NCBI GenBank assembly: GCA_964584075.1
Contig: CAZOYV010000006.1
Coordinates: 1-62,213, forward strand
Reading direction: 5' to 3'
DNA: 62,213 nucleotides
Source: an uncultured Rickettsiales bacterium
GTDB taxonomy: Bacteria > Myxococcota_A > UBA796 > UBA9615 > CAYRNR01
Made by a program: the position numbers and the translations under genes. Below, in pieces: positions 2,558 through 10,163 of the stretch; positions within the stretch are counted from its first letter, which is position 1, and each line of letters starts with the position of its first letter. The notes beneath the pieces are model-generated. The model was not told the origin of the DNA. It worked only from the letters and a program-made list of their open reading frames with translations, and did no database searches.

Positions 2558-2697
2558 GGCACTACCCCGCGTTCCATACCGCCGATCGTTCTTCCCCGGA
2601 TGCGCGCAGTGTACCGGGGGTCGACAACCGCGACCAGGATAAACCCCGCGTCGCAAACCACTTGGCACGCCCCCCGCCGACCCTTCATGCTGGCGGC

Positions 2698-4635
2698 ATG
2701 CGCAGATGGACGATCGGAGTCGTGCTGGGGCTGTGCTGCGGGGTGCTCCCCGCCGGGGCGTCGGAGCCCACGGCCACCTGGGTGCTGTTCGCCGACAAGG
2801 GGATCGCGGCGGAGGCCGTGGACGCGGCGCTCCACGACCGCCGCAGCGAGCTGTCCCCGCGGGCGCTGCAGCGGCGGCAGCGGGTGCGCGGGGACGGGGG
2901 CGTCGACGTCCGCGATCTCCCCGTCGCCGCCGGCTACGTCGAGGCGGTGCTGGCCACCGGCGCGCGGCACCGCGCGACCTCGCGGTGGCTCAACGCGGTC
3001 AGCGTCGAGGCCGACCCCGCCCAGCGCGCGGCGATCGCGGCGCTGCCGTTCGTCGCCGAGCTGCGACCCGTGGCGCGCCGCGCGCGGGACGGCGATGGCG
3101 TCCCGCCGGTGCCGCCGGCGGTCCCGCCACCGGGTCTCGACCCGGTCTACGGCCTGGCCTTCGACCAGCTGGCGCTGATCGGGATCCCCAGCCTCCACGA
3201 GTGCGGCCTGACCGGCGCCGGGGTGGTGGTCGGGGTCCAGGACACCGGGTTCCAGCTCGACCACCAGGCGTTTGCCCACCTGGACGTGATCGCGACCCAC
3301 GACTTCATCGACGACGACGACGAGGTCGGGTTCGAGGACGGCGACCCCGAGGCGCAGCACCGCCACGGGACCTCGGTGCTGTCGCTGGTCGCCGGCTGGG
3401 ACGAGGGCACGTTCTGCGGTGTCGCGCCCGACGTGTCGGTGATCCTCTCCAAGACCGAGGACACCTCGCAGGAGGAGCCGATCGAGGAGGACTGGTGGGT
3501 CGAGGGCGTCGAGTGGGTCGAGGGCCAGGGCGCCGACCTGATGACCGCCTCGCTGGGCTACTTCGACTGGTACGAGCCCGAGGACCTGGACGGCCAGACG
3601 GCGGTCACGACCCAGGCGGCCAGCGTGGCGCTGGCCAACGGGCTGATCCTGGTCAACAGCGCCGGCAACGGCGGCCCCGGGCTGTTCACCCTCGGCGCCC
3701 CGGCGGACACCGACGGGCTGATCTCGGTGGGGGCGGTCAACGTCTTCGGCAGCCTCGCCGAGTTCTCCTCGCGCGGGCCCACCTGGGACGGCCGGCTCAA
3801 GCCCGACGTGTGCGCGATGGGGGTCCAGAACTGGGTCGCGGATCCCGACACCACCGACGAGTACCGCCAGGGCAACGGCACGAGCTACGCCGCGCCGATG
3901 ACCGCGGGGCTGGTGGCGCTGCTGCTGCAGGCCCACCCCGGCCTGGGCCCCTGGGAGATGCGCGACCTGCTGGCCAGCACGGCGTCGCAGGCCAGCATGC
4001 CAGACTGGAACATGGGGTGGGGGATCGCATCGGGCGTCGCCGCCGCGGGGCTGTACTGCACCTGCCAGGACCTGGACGCCGACGGCTGGTACGACGCCGA
4101 GTGCGGCGGGCTGGACTGCGACGACGCGCGCCCCGGGATCCACCCCGAGGCCACCGAGGTGTGCAACGGCTTCGACGACGACTGCGACGGCGTCCCGTTC
4201 CCCGGCGAGGAGGACCTGGACGCCGACACCGTGCTGGCCTGCGACGACGGCAGCGGGGAGACCGACTGCGACGACGAGGACCCGGCCAGCTGGCCCGGCG
4301 CCCCCGAGACGCCCTACGACGGCGTCGACCAGGACTGCGACGGCCAGGACCTCGTGGACGTCGACGGCGACGGGGTGCCGGGCCCCGCCGAGGACTGCGA
4401 CGACGACGACCCCGCGGTCCACCCCGGGGCCGGCGAGGACTGCGCCGACGGGATCGACAACGACTGCGACGGGAGGATCGACGGGGGGGACCCGGACTGC
4501 GCCGAGGACGACGGCGGGCCCACGCTGGAGGGCAGCGGGTGCGCGTGCGGGGTGGGGGACCGCGCCGCGAGCGCGGGTGTGCTGCTGTGGTTGCTGGCGG
4601 GGATCGCGCTGCTACAGCAGCGGCGCGTCGTGTAG
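2698..4635 (+). CDS. S8 (subtilisin-like) serine peptidase with MopE-like putative metal-binding repeats and a MYXO-CTERM-like sorting tail
   Basis: Signal peptide. Catalytic motifs VQDTG, HGT, SAGN, GTSYAAP. Repeats DCDD..IHPxAxExCNGxDDDCDG. C-terminus GSGCAC + hydrophobic stretch + RR. Confidence 0.9.
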   Translation: MRRWTIGVVLGLCCGVLPAGASEPTATWVLFADKGIAAEAVDAALHDRRSELSPRALQRRQRVRGDGGVDVRDLPVAAGYVEAVLATGARHRATSRWLNAVSVEADPAQRAAIAALPFVAELRPVARRARDGDGVPPVPPAVPPPGLDPVYGLAFDQLALIGIPSLHECGLTGAGVVVGVQDTGFQLDHQAFAHLDVIATHDFIDDDDEVGFEDGDPEAQHRHGTSVLSLVAGWDEGTFCGVAPDVSVILSKTEDTSQEEPIEEDWWVEGVEWVEGQGADLMTASLGYFDWYEPEDLDGQTAVTTQAASVALANGLILVNSAGNGGPGLFTLGAPADTDGLISVGAVNVFGSLAEFSSRGPTWDGRLKPDVCAMGVQNWVADPDTTDEYRQGNGTSYAAPMTAGLVALLLQAHPGLGPWEMRDLLASTASQASMPDWNMGWGIASGVAAAGLYCTCQDLDADGWYDAECGGLDCDDARPGIHPEATEVCNGFDDDCDGVPFPGEEDLDADTVLACDDGSGETDCDDEDPASWPGAPETPYDGVDQDCDGQDLVDVDGDGVPGPAEDCDDDDPAVHPGAGEDCADGIDNDCDGRIDGGDPDCAEDDGGPTLEGSGCACGVGDRAASAGVLLWLLAGIALLQQRRVV

Positions 4636-5652
4636 CGGGACGCGGCACAGCACGGGATCGTCGTCGCACACCGACAGCAGCTGGCGGTCGACCACCACCA
4701 GGCCGTGGAACGCGTCGGCGAGGTACACGCGGTCGGCGTCCGCGATCACGTCGGCCAGGCCGGTGCCCACCGAGATCGCGGCCATCGGCATCGGGTCCTC
4801 GTAGCCGCCCGCGGGGGCGCGCAGATCCACCAGGTGCAGCATCCGCGTGCCGCTGGCGACGGTGACCAGCGGGCCGTCGCAGAACAGCCCGCCGCGCTCC
4901 GGGGCGCCGCCGTCGAGCTCGAGCTCCACGGCGCCGACCGGGCGAAGCTCGCCGTCCTGCATCGCGAGCACGTGGAGCCAGCCGTGCTCGTCGAAGGCGA
5001 CGATCACCGGGTCGCCGCCGGGCTCGGGGCGGGTCTCGGCGACGGCCAGCACCTCGCCCTCGTCGAGCACGCACAGTGCCTCCTGGACCAGCGCGTCCCC
5101 CTCGGTGCGCAGCACCGCGAGCCCCTGGGAGCGCGCGGCCAGCACGCGGTCGTCCGCCGCCAGCGCGAGCGCGCTGATCCGCCCCGGGTAGTCCACGCGC
5201 CCGGTGGCGCGCAGCGCTCCGCTCGCGGCGTCGCGCAGGTCGAGACGCGAGCCGCAGGCCAGGACCACGCGGTCGCCGTCGCCGCGCAAGGTCCGGCAGC
5301 GGGCCGCGGGGCCGCCCGCGGGCAGCACGGTGCGGACCGCCTCGCCGCCCTTCCAGCGGGCCAGCCGCCCGGTCTCGTCGAGCAGCAGGATCCCGTCTTC
5401 CACGCGGGCGATGCCCACCAGCTTGCAGCCGGGGTCGATGCGCGGCCGCCGCTCGTAGCCGGGCAGCGCGACGACCTCCAGGCCGCGGGGGGTGGCGAGG
5501 CACAGCTGATCGTCCCAGCGGGCCAGGCGCTCGGGTCGGCCGCCGAGGAGGCTGTCCAGCATGCGCCGCGAGATGTCGTCGTCGTCGAGCAGCTCGTCGT
5601 CGGCCGGGGCCCCCTCGCGCGGGGGGAGCGGCCGCAGGTCGTAGCGAATCAT
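4612..5652 (-). CDS. Hypothetical beta-propeller protein with LVIVD-like repeats
   Basis: Start trimmed to MIRYDL. Motifs RVYLADAFHGLVVVD and LVTVASGTRMLHLVDLRAP resemble LVIVD blades. Confidence 0.55.
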   Translation of the reverse strand: MIRYDLRPLPPREGAPADDELLDDDDISRRMLDSLLGGRPERLARWDDQLCLATPRGLEVVALPGYERRPRIDPGCKLVGIARVEDGILLLDETGRLARWKGGEAVRTVLPAGGPAARCRTLRGDGDRVVLACGSRLDLRDAASGALRATGRVDYPGRISALALAADDRVLAARSQGLAVLRTEGDALVQEALCVLDEGEVLAVAETRPEPGGDPVIVAFDEHGWLHVLAMQDGELRPVGAVELELDGGAPERGGLFCDGPLVTVASGTRMLHLVDLRAPAGGYEDPMPMAAISVGTGLADVIADADRVYLADAFHGLVVVDRQLLSVCDDDPVLCRVPLHDAPLL

Positions 5653-5769
5653 CGATGCCTCGCCGGGTCCGTCGTCGTGGTGCCCGGAGTCGGGTGCCCA
5701 CCCACCATCGTACTGTACGGAGAGACGGGCTGGGCTGCAATGCTCGTGAATGTTGTTCATCTCCGGTTC

Positions 5770-6705
5770 TCAGGGGTGGAGCAGGGTCAGCACCCCGGCC
5801 ACCGTCGCCGCTGCAAGCGGCGCGCCACAGAACAGGGCCATCGGCAGCACCACGACCAGCGAGCGGGTGGTGCTGCACTGGTGCACCCGGGCGGTGCCGT
5901 TGATCATCAGCACGGTCCACCAGATCACCTGGATCAGCGCGCCGATCACGGGGAACAGCCCGAGCCAGCCGGTGCCGCCCAGCGCGTACAGCGCGACCTT
6001 CAGCGTCGCCGGCAGGCCGTGCTCGCCACCCGCCCCCACGACGCGCAGCGCCGCGTGCTGTGCAGCCGCCACGACCGCGAACAGCCCGAATGTCGCCAGC
6101 GGGGCCAGCAGCGCCATCCCGAGGTGGGCCGCGGCGGCGCCCAGCGCCTGCAGCAGCGGCCCCGGGCCGGCGCCTCCGCCGCCGCTCGACGTCACCGCCA
6201 GCCACAGCGCATCGAGCAGGACCCCACCGCCGGTGGCCGTGGTCTGCAGCATCCACCACACCTGGTGCAGCAGCGCCCCGAGCAGCGCGTAGCCCACGGC
6301 GGCGCCGAGGTCGCGGGTGGGGTGCAGCTGGTCGAAGAACGTGTCGGGGCGCGAGATCACCCCCGAGGTGGTCCGCCACCACGACCGCGCCCGCCCCAGC
6401 TCGCGGCGTTCCTCCCAGGCCACCGGGGCCACCAGCGTCTTGCGCAGCCGCCCCCGGCAGCGCTCGCAGTAGCGGATCCCGCGGATCGAGACGTCGCAGG
6501 CGGTGCAGGTGAACGCCCCGCAGCCCGCACACACGCCGCTGACCGGGTGGCCGGGGTGCTCGCGGCACCAGCCGGCAGGGCCGCGCGCCACCGCGGGGGG
6601 CGCCAGCTGCAGCGCCGCGCGGCACTCCACGCAGCGCCCGCCATCGAGATCGCCGGCGGCCTGGGCCGCGCCGCACTCGCCACACCGCCGGACCGCCGCG
6701 ACCAC
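5770..6705 (-). CDS. Zinc-ribbon/B-box-like zinc finger + Yip1-family membrane protein (paralogue 2)
   Basis: CxxC..CxxC, then C-x2-H...CxxCG.FTCxxC...CxxC. Multi-TM region with SRPDTFF and VHQCSTTRSLV, typical of Yip1. Confidence 0.75.
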   Translation of the reverse strand: MVAAVRRCGECGAAQAAGDLDGGRCVECRAALQLAPPAVARGPAGWCREHPGHPVSGVCAGCGAFTCTACDVSIRGIRYCERCRGRLRKTLVAPVAWEERRELGRARSWWRTTSGVISRPDTFFDQLHPTRDLGAAVGYALLGALLHQVWWMLQTTATGGGVLLDALWLAVTSSGGGGAGPGPLLQALGAAAAHLGMALLAPLATFGLFAVVAAAQHAALRVVGAGGEHGLPATLKVALYALGGTGWLGLFPVIGALIQVIWWTVLMINGTARVHQCSTTRSLVVVLPMALFCGAPLAAATVAGVLTLLHP

Positions 6706-6714
6706 GCCGTGCTC

Positions 6715-7131
6715 CTACGCCACGCCGGTGAGGATCGTGTACAGCCAGTTGGCGAGGAACACCACGACGCCGGCGACCCACAGCCCGGTCTTCTCGTGGC
6801 GGGTCAGGCCCAACCGCAGCGAGCCGAGGCGGAACGCGATGCGCACCGCGGTCCACAGCGTGAACCCCGCGGCGAGGAAGAACAGCAGGCTGCCCAGTGG
6901 GGACTGGACGATCCCCAGGATCGGCTCCAGGTGGACCTGGTGGACCCACGCGCGGGTCATCCCGCAGGTGAAGCACGGGTAGCCGGTGATCTGCTTGAAG
7001 CTGCAGATGTACGGGTTGCGGTGGAACGGGAACCACGCCGCGGCGGCGAAGGCCACCGCGAACAGCGCGGCGAACAGGGCGCGCTCGTCCCACTCGCGGC
7101 GCACGGGGCGGGGGCGCAGGCCGGGGCTCAC
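6715..7131 (-). CDS. DUF2752 family membrane protein (138 aa)
   Basis: Motif CSFKQITGYPCFTCGMTRA...SPLG. GTG start overlaps the upstream TGA (GTGA). It is the C-terminal part of ORF 6715..7992. Confidence 0.8.
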   Translation of the reverse strand: MSPGLRPRPVRREWDERALFAALFAVAFAAAAWFPFHRNPYICSFKQITGYPCFTCGMTRAWVHQVHLEPILGIVQSPLGSLLFFLAAGFTLWTAVRIAFRLGSLRLGLTRHEKTGLWVAGVVVFLANWLYTILTGVA

Positions 7132-8093
7132 CCGAGGACCTCCACGAGGATCATCACGAAGAAGAACGCCACGTACGCCACCACCGGCGCGATGCACACG
7201 ATCCCCACCGGGATCAGCACCGAGAGCGCGCGGGTCGGCGAGCAGCCGTGGACCTTGGAGATCCCGACGACCATCAGCCCGGTCCACCAGAACGGGTGCA
7301 GCCACTGCCCGACGTAGGGGACCAGCCCGCACCAGCCGGTGCCCAGCGCGTACAGCCCGATCTTGAGCGTCGCGACCAGGCCGAGCTCCCCGCCCGCCCC
7401 GAACAGGCGCAGCGTCCCGTGCTGCAGGCAGGCCATCAGCAGGTAGCCCAGCAGCGTCATCAGCGGAGCCAGCACGATCACGGCCATCCCCATCCCGCTG
7501 ACGAACCCCAGCCCGATCAGGGCGGGGTGGGGGCCCGAGCTGGGCGGGCCGGAAGGGGCGAACAGCCCCACGCCGCCGACCAGGATGCCCATCGCGACGT
7601 ACATCAGCCCGAACAGGATCTGCCACGACGACGTCAGCGTCGCGCCGATGCCCCCGTAGAGCAGCGCCGAGCCCAGGTCGCGGGTCGGCTCCATCGCGTC
7701 GAAGAACCGCGCCGGACGCGCCGTGATCTCGGCGGTCGTGCGCCACCAGCCCTGGAGCCAGCCGATCGCGCGCCGCTCCTCGAACGGCACCGGGGCGGTC
7801 AGCCGCACGGCGAGGTCGTCGCGGCACGAGCGGCACAGCCGCACCCCGCGGACGCTGACGTCGCAGGCGGTGCAGGTGAACGTGCCGCAGCGGCTGCACA
7901 CCCCGGTGACCGGCCGGTCGGGGTGCTCGGCGCACCACCCCGCCGGCCCGCGCGCCACGGGCGGCGCCGCCAGCCGCAGGTGCTGGTTGCACTCGGCGCA
8001 GCGCCGCGCCTCGGGATCGGCCTGCACCGCCCCGCAGTGGAAGCAGCGCGGGCCGCCGTCCTCGATCGCCACGGCCGTGCCCGTCTCGCTCAC
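7128..8093 (-). CDS. Zinc-ribbon/B-box-like zinc finger + Yip1-family membrane protein (paralogue 1, 321 aa)
   Basis: CFHC..CAEC, then CAEHPDRPVTGVCSRCGTFTCTAC. ARPARFF and VHGCSPTRAL Yip1-like motifs. GTGA overlap with the upstream gene. Confidence 0.75.
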   Translation of the reverse strand: MSETGTAVAIEDGGPRCFHCGAVQADPEARRCAECNQHLRLAAPPVARGPAGWCAEHPDRPVTGVCSRCGTFTCTACDVSVRGVRLCRSCRDDLAVRLTAPVPFEERRAIGWLQGWWRTTAEITARPARFFDAMEPTRDLGSALLYGGIGATLTSSWQILFGLMYVAMGILVGGVGLFAPSGPPSSGPHPALIGLGFVSGMGMAVIVLAPLMTLLGYLLMACLQHGTLRLFGAGGELGLVATLKIGLYALGTGWCGLVPYVGQWLHPFWWTGLMVVGISKVHGCSPTRALSVLIPVGIVCIAPVVAYVAFFFVMILVEVLG

Positions 8094-8776
8094 GACGCCA
8101 GCTCCCGCAGGAATCCGCCGCAGAGCAGCAACACCGTCGTCGCCCACGATACTCCCGCCAGGCGGGCGCGCGTGCCGCGGCGGTTCAGGCGGCGCTCCTC
8201 GACCCGCACCCCCAGCGTCGCCAGCAGCAGGCCGTGGGGCAGCAGCAGCGCCCAGAACCAGTTGGCCAGCCCCAGCGGGAAGGCGCGCAGCAGCACCAGC
8301 GCGGCCACCGGCGGGCCCGCCGCGGCGAGCCAGAACCCCAGCGCGCGGTGCAGCCGCCCGTGCTCGAACGGCGCGCCGGCGGGGTAGGCCAGGCGCGGCA
8401 GCAGCGACAGCGCGGCCACGCCCCCCAGCGCCGCGATCCACCACGCCCGGTGGACCACCACGCCCGGCATCGCGCTCCAGAACTCGGCGGGCGGTGGCGC
8501 GGGCCGGAACGCCCACCCCGCGCCGGTGGCCACCACCGCGGCGAGCCCCAGGACCCAGGCGCCGCCGCGGCGATCGGGGGGCTCGAGGCGGGACCCCAGC
8601 AGCGCCGCGGCGAGGCTCCCGACCGTCGCCGCCGCGCCCAGCGCCAGCGCCGCGCTCCACGGGCCGAGCAGCGGCCCGTCGCGCCACTCCAGCGCCAGCT
8701 GGCCGGCCTGCACGCCGAGGTAGGTGATCCCCCAGCACAGGAGGAACGGCTCGAGCCGGGAGCGGGGGTCAGCCAC
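8090..8776 (-). CDS. Hypothetical multi-pass membrane protein (228 aa)
   Basis: About six hydrophobic segments. Overlaps the lpxC stop and the downstream GTG start, consistent with operon packing. Confidence 0.6.
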   Translation of the reverse strand: MADPRSRLEPFLLCWGITYLGVQAGQLALEWRDGPLLGPWSAALALGAAATVGSLAAALLGSRLEPPDRRGGAWVLGLAAVVATGAGWAFRPAPPPAEFWSAMPGVVVHRAWWIAALGGVAALSLLPRLAYPAGAPFEHGRLHRALGFWLAAAGPPVAALVLLRAFPLGLANWFWALLLPHGLLLATLGVRVEERRLNRRGTRARLAGVSWATTVLLLCGGFLRELAS

Positions 8777-9647
8777 TCGCCGACAGCGACGGCGCGTCCT
8801 GGGTGTCGATCTCGACCGCGCCGCGCTCGAGCGCCAGCCGCACCAGCGACAGGTTGAAGGCGTGCCCGGAGCGGTGGGCCACGAAGCGGCCCAGCACCGG
8901 GGCGCCGAGCAGCGCCAGGTCGCCGATCATGTCCAGCAGCTTGTGGCGCACGCACTCGTCCTCGAAGCGCAGGCCCTCGGGGTTGAGCACCCGCTCGTCG
9001 TCGAGCACCACGGCGTTGTCCAGGCTGCCCCCCAGCGCCAGCCCGTGGCGGCGCATCGCGTCCACGTCGGCCAGCAGCCCGAACGTCCGCGCCGGGGCGA
9101 TCTCGGTGGCGAACGCGCGGGCGTCCCCCTCGAACTGCCGCCGCTGCGAGCGCAGCAGGGGGTGGTCGAAGGCGATCCGGCACTCCAGCGCCAGCCCCAC
9201 GTGGGGCTCGAGGCGGCACCAGCGGTCGTCGCCGGGGTCGCGGGCCTCCACCGGCGCGACGACCCGCAGCACCGTGCGCGGTACGCCCTGCTGGACCGTG
9301 CCGCCGTCGATCAGCGGCACGACGAACGGGCGCGCCGAGCCGTCGAGGATCGGGATCTCGGGGCCGTCGACCTCCACCAGTGCGTTGTCCACGCCGGTGC
9401 CGTGCAGCGCGGCGATCAGGTGCTCCACCGTGGCGACCCGGGCGTCGCCGACCCCCAGCGTGGTGGCCAGCGTGGTCTGCACCACGTGCTCGACGCGGGC
9501 GGGGATCCGCGGCGCCGCGGGCAGGTCCACGCGGCGGAACGCCAGCCCGTGGTCCGGGGGGGCGGGGTGCACCACCGCGCGGACCGTCCGGCCGCTGTGC
9601 AGGCCGATGCCCTCGAACGTCAGCGGCTTGCGTACCGTGCGCTGCAA
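8769..9647 (-). CDS. lpxC: UDP-3-O-acyl-N-acetylglucosamine deacetylase
   Basis: MQRT..GIGLHSG, TVEHL, EIPILDGSA, EIAPARTFG, GGSLDNAVV and HKLLDMIGDL zinc motifs. Confidence 0.97.
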   Translation of the reverse strand: MQRTVRKPLTFEGIGLHSGRTVRAVVHPAPPDHGLAFRRVDLPAAPRIPARVEHVVQTTLATTLGVGDARVATVEHLIAALHGTGVDNALVEVDGPEIPILDGSARPFVVPLIDGGTVQQGVPRTVLRVVAPVEARDPGDDRWCRLEPHVGLALECRIAFDHPLLRSQRRQFEGDARAFATEIAPARTFGLLADVDAMRRHGLALGGSLDNAVVLDDERVLNPEGLRFEDECVRHKLLDMIGDLALLGAPVLGRFVAHRSGHAFNLSLVRLALERGAVEIDTQDAPSLSASG

Positions 9648-9713: not shown

Positions 9714-10163
9714 TCACTCCTCGTCCGGCTCCGGCAGCTCGAACGAGACCTCGTCGCCGACCTCGACCCCGTGGTCGTCGAACCAGCCCTTGTTGACCTC
9801 CAGCACGTACTGGCAGGGCTTGCGCGACGAGTGCGAGTCGGTGTCGCGCGGGGACATGTCGGTGATGTGCACGATCTGCTTGTCCGCGTCGATGAACGCG
9901 ATGGACAGCGGCACGTAGGTGTTCTTCATCCAGAAGCTGCGGAGCTCCTCGCGGTCGTACACGAACAGCATCCCGCGATTGCGGCCCAGCTTCTGGCGGT
10001 ACATCAGCCCGCGCTCCTGCTGGCCGGCGGTCATCGCCAGCTCGACCTTGAGGCTGGCGTCCCCGACCTCCAGCCGGGTGGTGCGCAGCCCGGTCTGGGC
10101 GCAGCCGAAGCCCGCGGTCCCCACCACCGCGAGCACCAGTCCGATCATCGCGGCCCTCGTCAT
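9714..10163 (-). CDS. DUF192 domain protein with signal peptide/lipobox
   Basis: ERGLMYR, GMLFVY, FWMKNTYVPLSIAFID and YVLEVNKG motifs. Confidence 0.92.
   Translation of the reverse strand: MTRAAMIGLVLAVVGTAGFGCAQTGLRTTRLEVGDASLKVELAMTAGQQERGLMYRQKLGRNRGMLFVYDREELRSFWMKNTYVPLSIAFIDADKQIVHITDMSPRDTDSHSSRKPCQYVLEVNKGWFDDHGVEVGDEVSFELPEPDEE

Follow-up and report, generated by a model that had tools for sequence, protein, structure and literature searches.

A Yip1-Like/DUF2752 Membrane Gene Pair Found Across Bacterial Phyla and Its Lineage-Specific Elaboration Behind lpxC

The subject of this work is a string of co-oriented genes on the minus strand of a 62,213-nt stretch of DNA (contig CAZOYV010000006.1 of an uncultured bacterium; hereafter, the window), derived from microbial-mat metagenomes and possessing a guanine–cytosine (GC) content of ca. 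75%. In this string, the genes of two paralogous Yip1-like membrane proteins, ZnYip-A and ZnYip-B, flank a gene for a small membrane protein of the DUF2752 family (Table 1; positions given without a locus name are those of the whole window). The conserved unit of the string is a Yip1-like gene followed by a co-oriented DUF2752 gene, a pair present in at least three phyla, as labelled in the database records. In the window, the Yip1-like gene has been duplicated once, two further genes (TM228 and P382) have been added, and the whole set is situated directly behind lpxC. It is probable, in our opinion, that the locus represents a lineage-specific elaboration of a widespread two-gene membrane cassette, the products of which would form an inner-membrane scaffold or assembly complex. 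The pair has no published function in the literature searched.

Conservation of the Yip1-Like/DUF2752 Pair

The occurrence of the pair was surveyed in one genome per species, where a scan with a DUF2752 alignment returned 56 loci. Retrieval with a CGMTR-type DUF2752 pattern biases this sample to one subfamily. Phylum labels were taken from the record titles, and Yip1-like genes were detected by tblastn with the window proteins (24–33% identity) and then read as open reading frames (ORFs). Besides seven loci of the window lineage, 25 loci displayed a Yip1-like gene ending 0–60 nt before DUF2752, with a single exception (ca. 650 nt in L023); their records are labelled Acidobacteriota, Verrucomicrobiota, Myxococcota/Deltaproteobacteria, “uncultured”, and others. 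According to the Pfam search of 33 upstream neighbours of DUF2752, the membrane module belonged to Yip1 in 22 proteins (best E 5.7e-21), to DUF7544 in 8, and to DUF4234 in 2; two head domains, GYF_2 (7/33) and zf-B_box (5/33), were scored in the same proteins. A cysteine cluster (e.g., CC, CCGC, CCCC, or CxTCC) was present in a late transmembrane (TM) helix of all distant partners, be they Yip1-like, DUF7544, or DUF4234 proteins.

The association was also followed in the reverse direction, in 80 metagenome loci picked solely by a sub-alignment of the Yip1-like family. DUF2752 was located directly downstream on the same strand in all 76 informative loci, the hidden Markov model (HMM) hits lying a median of 28 nt apart; in the remaining four, the contig breaks off no more than 150 nt from the Yip1-like gene. 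The count of 76 overstates the independence of the observations, since the 80 loci collapse into 29 clusters at 90% identity and about eight at 70%. Conserved co-occurrence with DUF2752 had been named as a refutation test by the initial annotation of this DNA, made from the sequence alone, and its expectation is strongly borne out across phyla. The same annotation proposed a module of four genes (TM228, ZnYip-A, DUF2752, and ZnYip-B); the coupling of these genes stands, but the conserved core comprises only the Yip1-like gene and DUF2752. The genes after DUF2752 vary by lineage and encode a family 2 glycosyltransferase (GT2) in five loci, PlsY in two, Dus in two, and other proteins elsewhere, including methyltransferases and ATP-binding cassette (ABC) ATPases. 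Hence, only the pair is conserved, and a third conserved gene in the cassette was ruled out.

On the DUF2752 tree, the distribution of the partner types requires two changes, i.e., the minimum, as compared with a mean of 9.6 after shuffling of the labels, and none of the 200 shuffles was as low. A branch (SH-aLRT, the Shimodaira–Hasegawa-like approximate likelihood ratio test, 92) sets apart the Yip1-paired DUF2752 proteins, which span Verrucomicrobiota, Acidobacteriota, Myxococcota, and the window lineage; Acidobacteriota contain both a Yip1-paired and a separate DUF7544-paired clade of DUF2752. In this tree, the P-numbered sequences of the lineage were labelled as Yip1-paired by lineage, and the context was directly checked for the listed loci only. 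Judging by the tree topology, DUF2752 has diversified along with the partner family and not simply with the host phylum. Such tracking of the partner is what would be expected from a specific physical partnership.

Several gene arrangements around DUF2752 were recorded in the course of the survey. In the high-GC group (L016, L018, L019, L020, and L023), DUF2752 is followed, at a distance of −4 to +18 nt, by a gene of a membrane-anchored GT2 resembling polyprenol-phosphate-sugar synthases and bearing C-terminal TM helices, whereas plsY occupies the position after DUF2752 in L032 and L034. In Acidobacteriota and Bacteroidota (L043, L044, L046, L054, and L059–L063), a polytopic DUF7544 protein of ca. 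315 aa precedes another clade of DUF2752; the DUF7544 partners possess a conserved G-C-x-T-C-C-I-G-F motif within a TM helix. In the Armatimonadota locus L037 (6577–7080), a zinc-ribbon membrane protein with a Pro-rich linker and a GCCCCCS run is encoded 264 nt past DUF2752.

The DUF2752 Protein and the Predicted Topology of the Pair

The DUF2752 assignment (PF10825), made already in the initial annotation together with the own Cys motif of the protein, is upheld by a Pfam score of 42.4 bits vs. the gathering score of 27. In an alignment of 61 DUF2752 sequences, the residues C43, C53, C56, G57, M58, T59, and R60 are invariant, which is partly due to the selection of the sequences, as the retrieval fixed the CGMTR pattern. 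The number of the invariant cysteines, three, is odd.

In the AlphaFold2 (AF2) model of DUF2752 (predicted local distance difference test score, pLDDT, 88.9; predicted template modelling score, pTM, 0.80), the long helices span residues 16–33, 78–99, and 111–135, with short interfacial helices between the first two and with C53-x2-C56 placed at the N-terminus of the helix 54–66. The density of Lys and Arg across the 61 sequences amounts to 0.23 in the N-terminus and loop 2 and to ca. 0.08 in the Cys loop (0.079) and the C-terminus. The low value in the Cys loop predicts its periplasmic placement, so DUF2752 is predicted to be oriented N-in, C-out and to expose its cysteine triad on the periplasmic face. 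In the Yip1-like proteins, the loops TM2–3 and TM4–5 are positive, and the Lys and Arg count is about zero in the TM1–2 loop and the TM3–4 turn; predicted for this domain from these counts and from the AF2 helices is an N-in, C-out orientation with five TM helices. The AF2 model of ZnYip-A is of similar quality (pLDDT 90.7, pTM 0.81).

The Foldseek search of the ZnYip-A and DUF2752 models against PDB revealed no relative (best E 0.79 and 0.54, respectively), nor did a PDB profile search return a match for DUF2752. No similarity of DUF2752 to DsbB, VKOR, DHHC, or any solved fold was found, and the literature searched contained no paper on DUF2752/PF10825.

Yip1-Like Proteins and Their Duplication

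ZnYip-A and ZnYip-B share 48% identity across 294 residues (E 2e-83), as befits the paralogues recognized in the initial annotation, which flank DUF2752 and share the finger motif quoted there. The Yip1 domain (PF04893) is detected in both copies just above the threshold: ZnYip-A scores 28.8 bits (residues 125–306) and ZnYip-B 30.1 bits at a gathering score of 28.6, which makes both matches borderline; they cover positions 5–172 and 2–168, respectively, of the 173 in the profile.

Throughout the family, the residues R107 (within the P-W-E-x-R motif), P127, H225, T242, and P295 are invariant. Three further elements are conserved in distant relatives: H-x-C in TM2, the turn P-x-C-G, and, in TM5, a CC cluster. 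Their cysteines have largely been lost in the window lineage. All ten A copies of the lineage retain VHxCS in a cytoplasmic loop, and five of them carry a Cys in TM5, the other five having none; the B copies usually have VHRRS along with one or two TM5 cysteines, so that every genome of the lineage keeps at least one TM5 cysteine among its Yip1-like copies. The comparison of these motifs suggests that A and B have diverged in their cysteine pattern in a complementary way. In the window copies, one TM5 Cys was read from the sequence in A (...IPVGIVCIAP...) and one in B (...LPMALFCGAP...); the census of TM5 cysteines counts two for the latter because its 35-residue window includes the Cys of the VHQCS loop.

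In the tree of A, B, and outgroup sequences, the nine B copies all group in a single clade (99/99), which is nested within the A copies. This nesting indicates that the pair has arisen by a single duplication inside a narrow lineage, unlike the ancient split of Yip1 and Yif1. Both copies are kept in nine of the ten lineage genomes; judging by the gene order, B has been lost in one relative, L011. In the other lineages, a single Yip1-like gene precedes DUF2752 in 24 of the 25 loci. The exception, L038, has undergone a tandem duplication independent of that in the window lineage. Repeated duplication beside a single DUF2752 suggests a complex with more than one Yip1-like subunit.

The two deviating loci are organized as follows. 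In L011 (5069–7675), where ZnYip-B is absent, DUF2752 runs straight into the soluble orphan gene, and the single Yip1-like copy retains a TM5 cysteine. L038 (4143–5873), found in a metagenome-assembled genome (MAG) of Myxococcaceae from sheep colon, harbours two tandem Yip1-like genes upstream of one DUF2752.

Exchangeable Heads of the Yip1-Like Proteins

The Yip1-like domain of both window proteins is preceded by a zinc ribbon and a finger with the spacing C54-x2-H57-x8-C66-x2-C69-x4-C74-x2-C77-x9-C87-x2-C90 (ZnYip-A numbering). None of the 12 putative zinc ligands, four in the ribbon and eight in the finger, varies among the 24 lineage sequences. The finger was described as B-box-like in the initial annotation; the eight-ligand pattern agrees with this description, but the zf-B_box (PF00643) scores, 20.4 bits for ZnYip-A and 18.6 bits for ZnYip-B, are below the gathering score of 24.1. 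The PDB profile search with the finger yielded weak B-box matches only (TRIM28, E 0.12; TRIM28/TRIM63 range, E 0.12–0.6), and the Foldseek search of the whole ZnYip-A model against PDB gave no match to it. The finger is, therefore, called B-box-like, by its ligand pattern, and its membership in the B-box family is not established.

Across the loci, the head preceding the Yip1-like domain varies. It is represented by the B-box-like finger only in L016, L018, L019, and L020, by the zinc ribbon only in Acidobacteriota and several Myxococcales, and by both, as in the window, in L030 and L036; the eight finger ligands are retained in all six of these more distant loci. In Verrucomicrobiota, the head is GYF_2, and in L045 there is none. 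Since heads devoid of zinc sites, or no head at all, occur on the same core, zinc appears to be a structural feature of one head type and not of the core, and the epithet “zinc-regulated” given to the complex in the initial annotation finds no support.

Proposed Organization and Alternative Explanations

A membrane complex is the natural reading of the coupled genes, as far as can be judged from their arrangement. Two proteins would make up its core, namely, a five-helix Yip1-like protein of the inner membrane, whose cytoplasmic head is exchangeable, and the three-helix DUF2752 with its Cys triad. The complex would be stoichiometric and contain more than one Yip1-like subunit per DUF2752, in the window presumably A plus B. 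DUF2752 may pack against the Yip1-like domain, with the triad at the periplasmic face of the membrane near the last helix of the partner, where almost all relatives bear a cysteine cluster. At the cytoplasmic side, the ribbon and B-box-like heads, with three putative structural zinc sites each, may operate as docking modules, and the soluble orphan P382 would be a candidate client of them. By analogy with eukaryotic Yip1 and YknW of Bacillus, such a complex would most likely be a membrane scaffold or assembly factor rather than a transporter or enzyme of a known type.

Apart from the subfamily bias of the genome sample and the redundancy of the metagenome loci indicated above, several observations weigh against this scaffold complex. 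There is no solved relative for either fold, so the structure gives no hint at the function. The depletion of partner cysteines in the window lineage, including the five A copies with none in TM5, weakens any cysteine-centred contact there. The co-transcription of the cassette with lpxC is deduced from the gene overlaps. Finally, DUF2752 occurs in L017 with a P382 relative and without a Yip1-like gene, an arrangement suggesting that P382 goes with DUF2752 and not with the Yip1-like protein.

An alternative explanation, to which we ascribe a minor though appreciable likelihood, is that DUF2752 is a thiol-active or metal-binding factor, e.g., a disulfide relay, a metal clasp, or a Cys-modifying enzyme, acting on the membrane cysteines of its neighbour, the Yip1-like proteins being its clients. 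It would account for the constant pairing of DUF2752 with membrane families unrelated to one another (Yip1-like, DUF7544, and DUF4234), all of which share the late-TM cysteine clusters, and for the odd number of the invariant DUF2752 cysteines with CxxC at a helix N-terminus. It also fits the retention of at least one TM5 Cys per lineage genome, including that of L011, which lacks B and has this residue in A. However, a TM5 Cys is missing from half of the A copies, and the cysteines of TM2 and the P-x-C-G turn have been lost, yet A remains conserved and coupled to DUF2752; furthermore, DUF2752 is unlike the DsbB, VKOR, and DHHC proteins or any solved fold. A more specific and rather doubtful variant is that the three DUF2752 cysteines, together with a fourth ligand or reactive thiol donated by the last TM helix of the neighbour, make up an intermolecular metal clasp or thiol centre on the outer-leaflet side of the inner membrane. 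Should this clasp exist, many families of small bacterial membrane proteins (Yip1-like, DUF7544, and DUF4234) would have in DUF2752 a common partner, previously unrecognized; the Yip1-like branch would be the largest-bodied client class of DUF2752, with the heads coupling the complex to cytoplasmic partners.

A model built on the initial annotation, in which A and B form an obligate, zinc-regulated heteromer resembling Yip1/Yif1 and engaged in membrane or vesicle trafficking, now seems very improbable. Two diverged paralogues with complementary cysteine patterns (VHxCS always in A, one or two TM5 cysteines in B) and with twelve invariant putative zinc ligands per protein are indeed maintained in nine of the ten lineage genomes, as this model would have it. 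At the same time, the duplication is recent and lineage-specific, with the B clade nested in A; L011 manages without B, nearly all other phyla have a single copy, zinc-free heads are carried by the same core, and no GTPase or vesicle-related gene is found nearby. Equally slim are the chances that the module serves envelope lipid or lipopolysaccharide (LPS) biogenesis, e.g., by tuning LpxC or lipid A export, via its presumed co-transcription with lpxC. The 8-nt overlap of lpxC and TM228, in an order conserved throughout the lineage, speaks for such a role, as do the loci elsewhere in which DUF2752 precedes a membrane GT2 (five) or PlsY (two). Still, the linkage to lpxC is limited to one narrow and fully syntenic lineage, the downstream genes in other lineages also code for Dus, methyltransferases, and ABC ATPases, and in the Acidobacteriota or Verrucomicrobiota loci, the pair has no linked LPS gene.

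Comparison with Known Systems

To our knowledge, Yip1 proteins are ancient membrane scaffolds, whose bacterial members are almost unstudied, and we know of no eukaryotic counterpart of DUF2752. The window proteins resemble the Yip1 family (PF04893; Yip1/Yif1, YIPF) in the HMM match, borderline here and strong in the relatives, in the predicted topology (five TM helices, the N-terminal domain in the cytoplasm, and the short C-terminus outside), and, probably, in the role of a membrane scaffold. They differ from it in their location in the bacterial inner membrane, in the head composed of a zinc ribbon and a B-box-like finger, and in the obligate DUF2752 neighbour; moreover, the A/B pair stems from a recent duplication and not from an ancient split. 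The B-box fingers (PF00643; TRIM- and CONSTANS-type) likewise possess eight Cys/His ligands, which the window finger arranges with a B-box-like spacing; unlike them, the latter scores under the Pfam gathering threshold, reaches TRIM28 only at the E-value given above, and is fused to a bacterial membrane protein.

As in the window, the immediate neighbour of DUF2752 in its cassettes with DUF7544 or DUF4234 is a membrane protein; in such cassettes, the neighbour often possesses a zinc-ribbon or GYF head and a cysteine cluster in a TM helix. However, the partner in the window is a larger, five-TM Yip1-like protein present in two copies flanking DUF2752, with the Cys cluster reduced to 0–2 residues, and the locus also includes two lineage-specific orphans and the linkage to lpxC.

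The statement of the initial annotation that the functions of bacterial Yip1 proteins are unknown needs a slight correction, since the YknXYZ exporter of Bacillus has an accessory subunit of the Yip1 family, YknW (PMC4887032). Like YknW, which takes part in a membrane complex as its accessory or assembly subunit, the window proteins are bacterial Yip1-family membrane proteins; unlike in the YknW system, ABC transporter and membrane-fusion protein genes are absent from the window operon and its syntenic relatives, and neither a DUF2752 partner nor a zinc-finger head is reported for YknW in PMC4887032.

Both families gain a defined partner from the present findings, as the Yip1-like branch adjoins DUF2752 in virtually every contig long enough to tell. 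What is added is a quantified Yip1-like branch, the swappable heads, and the partner-specific clades of DUF2752. The window locus itself is of moderate value, being one elaborated instance from an uncultured microbial-mat bacterium.

Gene Layout and Synteny in the Window Lineage

The genes read on the minus strand, from ORFs and their junctions, follow in the order ruvA, ruvB, DUF192, lpxC, TM228, ZnYip-A, DUF2752, ZnYip-B, and the soluble orphan P382 (Table 1). From TM228 to P382, the ORFs are all co-oriented and joined via overlaps or short gaps. The GTG start of TM228 overlaps the lpxC stop by 8 nt, the junctions TM228/ZnYip-A and ZnYip-A/DUF2752 are GTGA overlaps, and 9 nt separate DUF2752 from ZnYip-B. 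The four coupled genes, their features, coordinates, overlaps, and gap are all present in the sequence as described in the initial annotation. The start codons of TM228, ZnYip-A, ZnYip-B, and DUF2752 match the N-termini of their orthologues. The 3′ ends of P382 and of the convergent S8 peptidase/MopE gene, the latter found in every syntenic relative, overlap by 24 nt.

Table 1. Coordinates of the genes and cysteine motifs of the string in the window
Feature	Position	Strand	Remarks
DUF192 gene	9714–10163	−	Part of the same gene string
lpxC (UDP-3-O-acyl-GlcNAc deacetylase)	8769–9647	−	Pfam LpxC 2.9e-100; TIGR00325 9.9e-95
TM228, polytopic membrane protein, 228 aa	8090–8776	−	Lineage-restricted orphan
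ZnYip-A, 321 aa	7128–8093	−	Putative zinc ribbon, B-box-like finger, and Yip1-like domain with five predicted TM helices
ZnYip-A putative zinc ribbon, C17-x2-C20 ... C32-x2-C35	7989–8045	−	Four Cys invariant in the lineage
ZnYip-A B-box-like finger, residues C54–C90	7824–7934	−	Eight ligands invariant in the lineage
DUF2752, 138 aa, three predicted TM helices	6715–7131	−	Pfam PF10825
DUF2752 cysteine motif, C43 ... C53-x2-C56-G-M-T-R60	6952–7005	−	61-sequence alignment
ZnYip-B, 311 aa	5770–6705	−	ZnYip-A paralogue, same three-part architecture
P382, soluble orphan, probably 346 aa from M37 at 5652	4612–5760	−	Terminal gene of the string
S8 peptidase gene with Cys-rich MopE-like repeats	2662–4635	+	Converges on P382

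A scan for sigma-70 promoters and terminators returned nothing and is uninformative at this GC content; no RNA runs containing the stretch were found, and only microbial-mat DNA runs contain it. PADLOC gave no match for any of the five proteins encoded from TM228 to P382, so an anti-phage defence role, tried as a candidate, is unsupported by the defence models.

A search of 5.8 billion clustered proteins brought up only about 20 relatives of ZnYip-A. In every related contig, the order yebC-ruvCAB-DUF192-lpxC-TM228-A-DUF2752-B-orphan, followed by the convergent S8 peptidase gene, is preserved (without B in L011), and the succession of lpxC and TM228 is unchanged in all lineage loci. Coming from one narrow lineage, this synteny by itself seems to say little on function.

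TM228 has no Pfam, NCBIfam, or PADLOC match. Its ten orthologues share 27 invariant columns, and among 1.84 billion representative proteins, a profile search recovered only eight clusters, of the same length and all at E ≤ 1e-51. Thus, TM228 is an orphan restricted to the lineage and not the core part of the module it was taken for in the initial annotation. As a candidate relative of the Yip1-like proteins it was rejected, having no similarity to their profile.

The closest genome records, L009–L020, are titled “uncultured Rickettsiales bacterium”, and yet their GC content is 64–73% and their synteny is myxobacteria-like; these titles look like an automated mis-assignment and were treated as unreliable.

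P382 likewise lacks Pfam, NCBIfam, and PADLOC matches. Its family comprises 24 proteins confined to the lineage, plus one relative in L017 with 34% identity. P382 probably begins not at the ATG at 5760, 9 nt past the ZnYip-B stop, but at M37 (5652), because its orthologues are 338–352 aa long and the database entry for this very protein of the window has 346 aa. Conservation starts near residue 60, and the start at M37 would leave an intergenic gap of ca. 115 nt, the same as in the relatives. In L017 (1384–3129), the P382 relative comes 66 nt after DUF2752; no Yip1-like gene is present, and the gene upstream of DUF2752 is a divergent ORF resembling S-adenosylhomocysteine hydrolase. The PDB profile search with P382 produced a weak WD40/beta-propeller-like signal (NEDD1 and other WD40 proteins, E 0.003–0.03).

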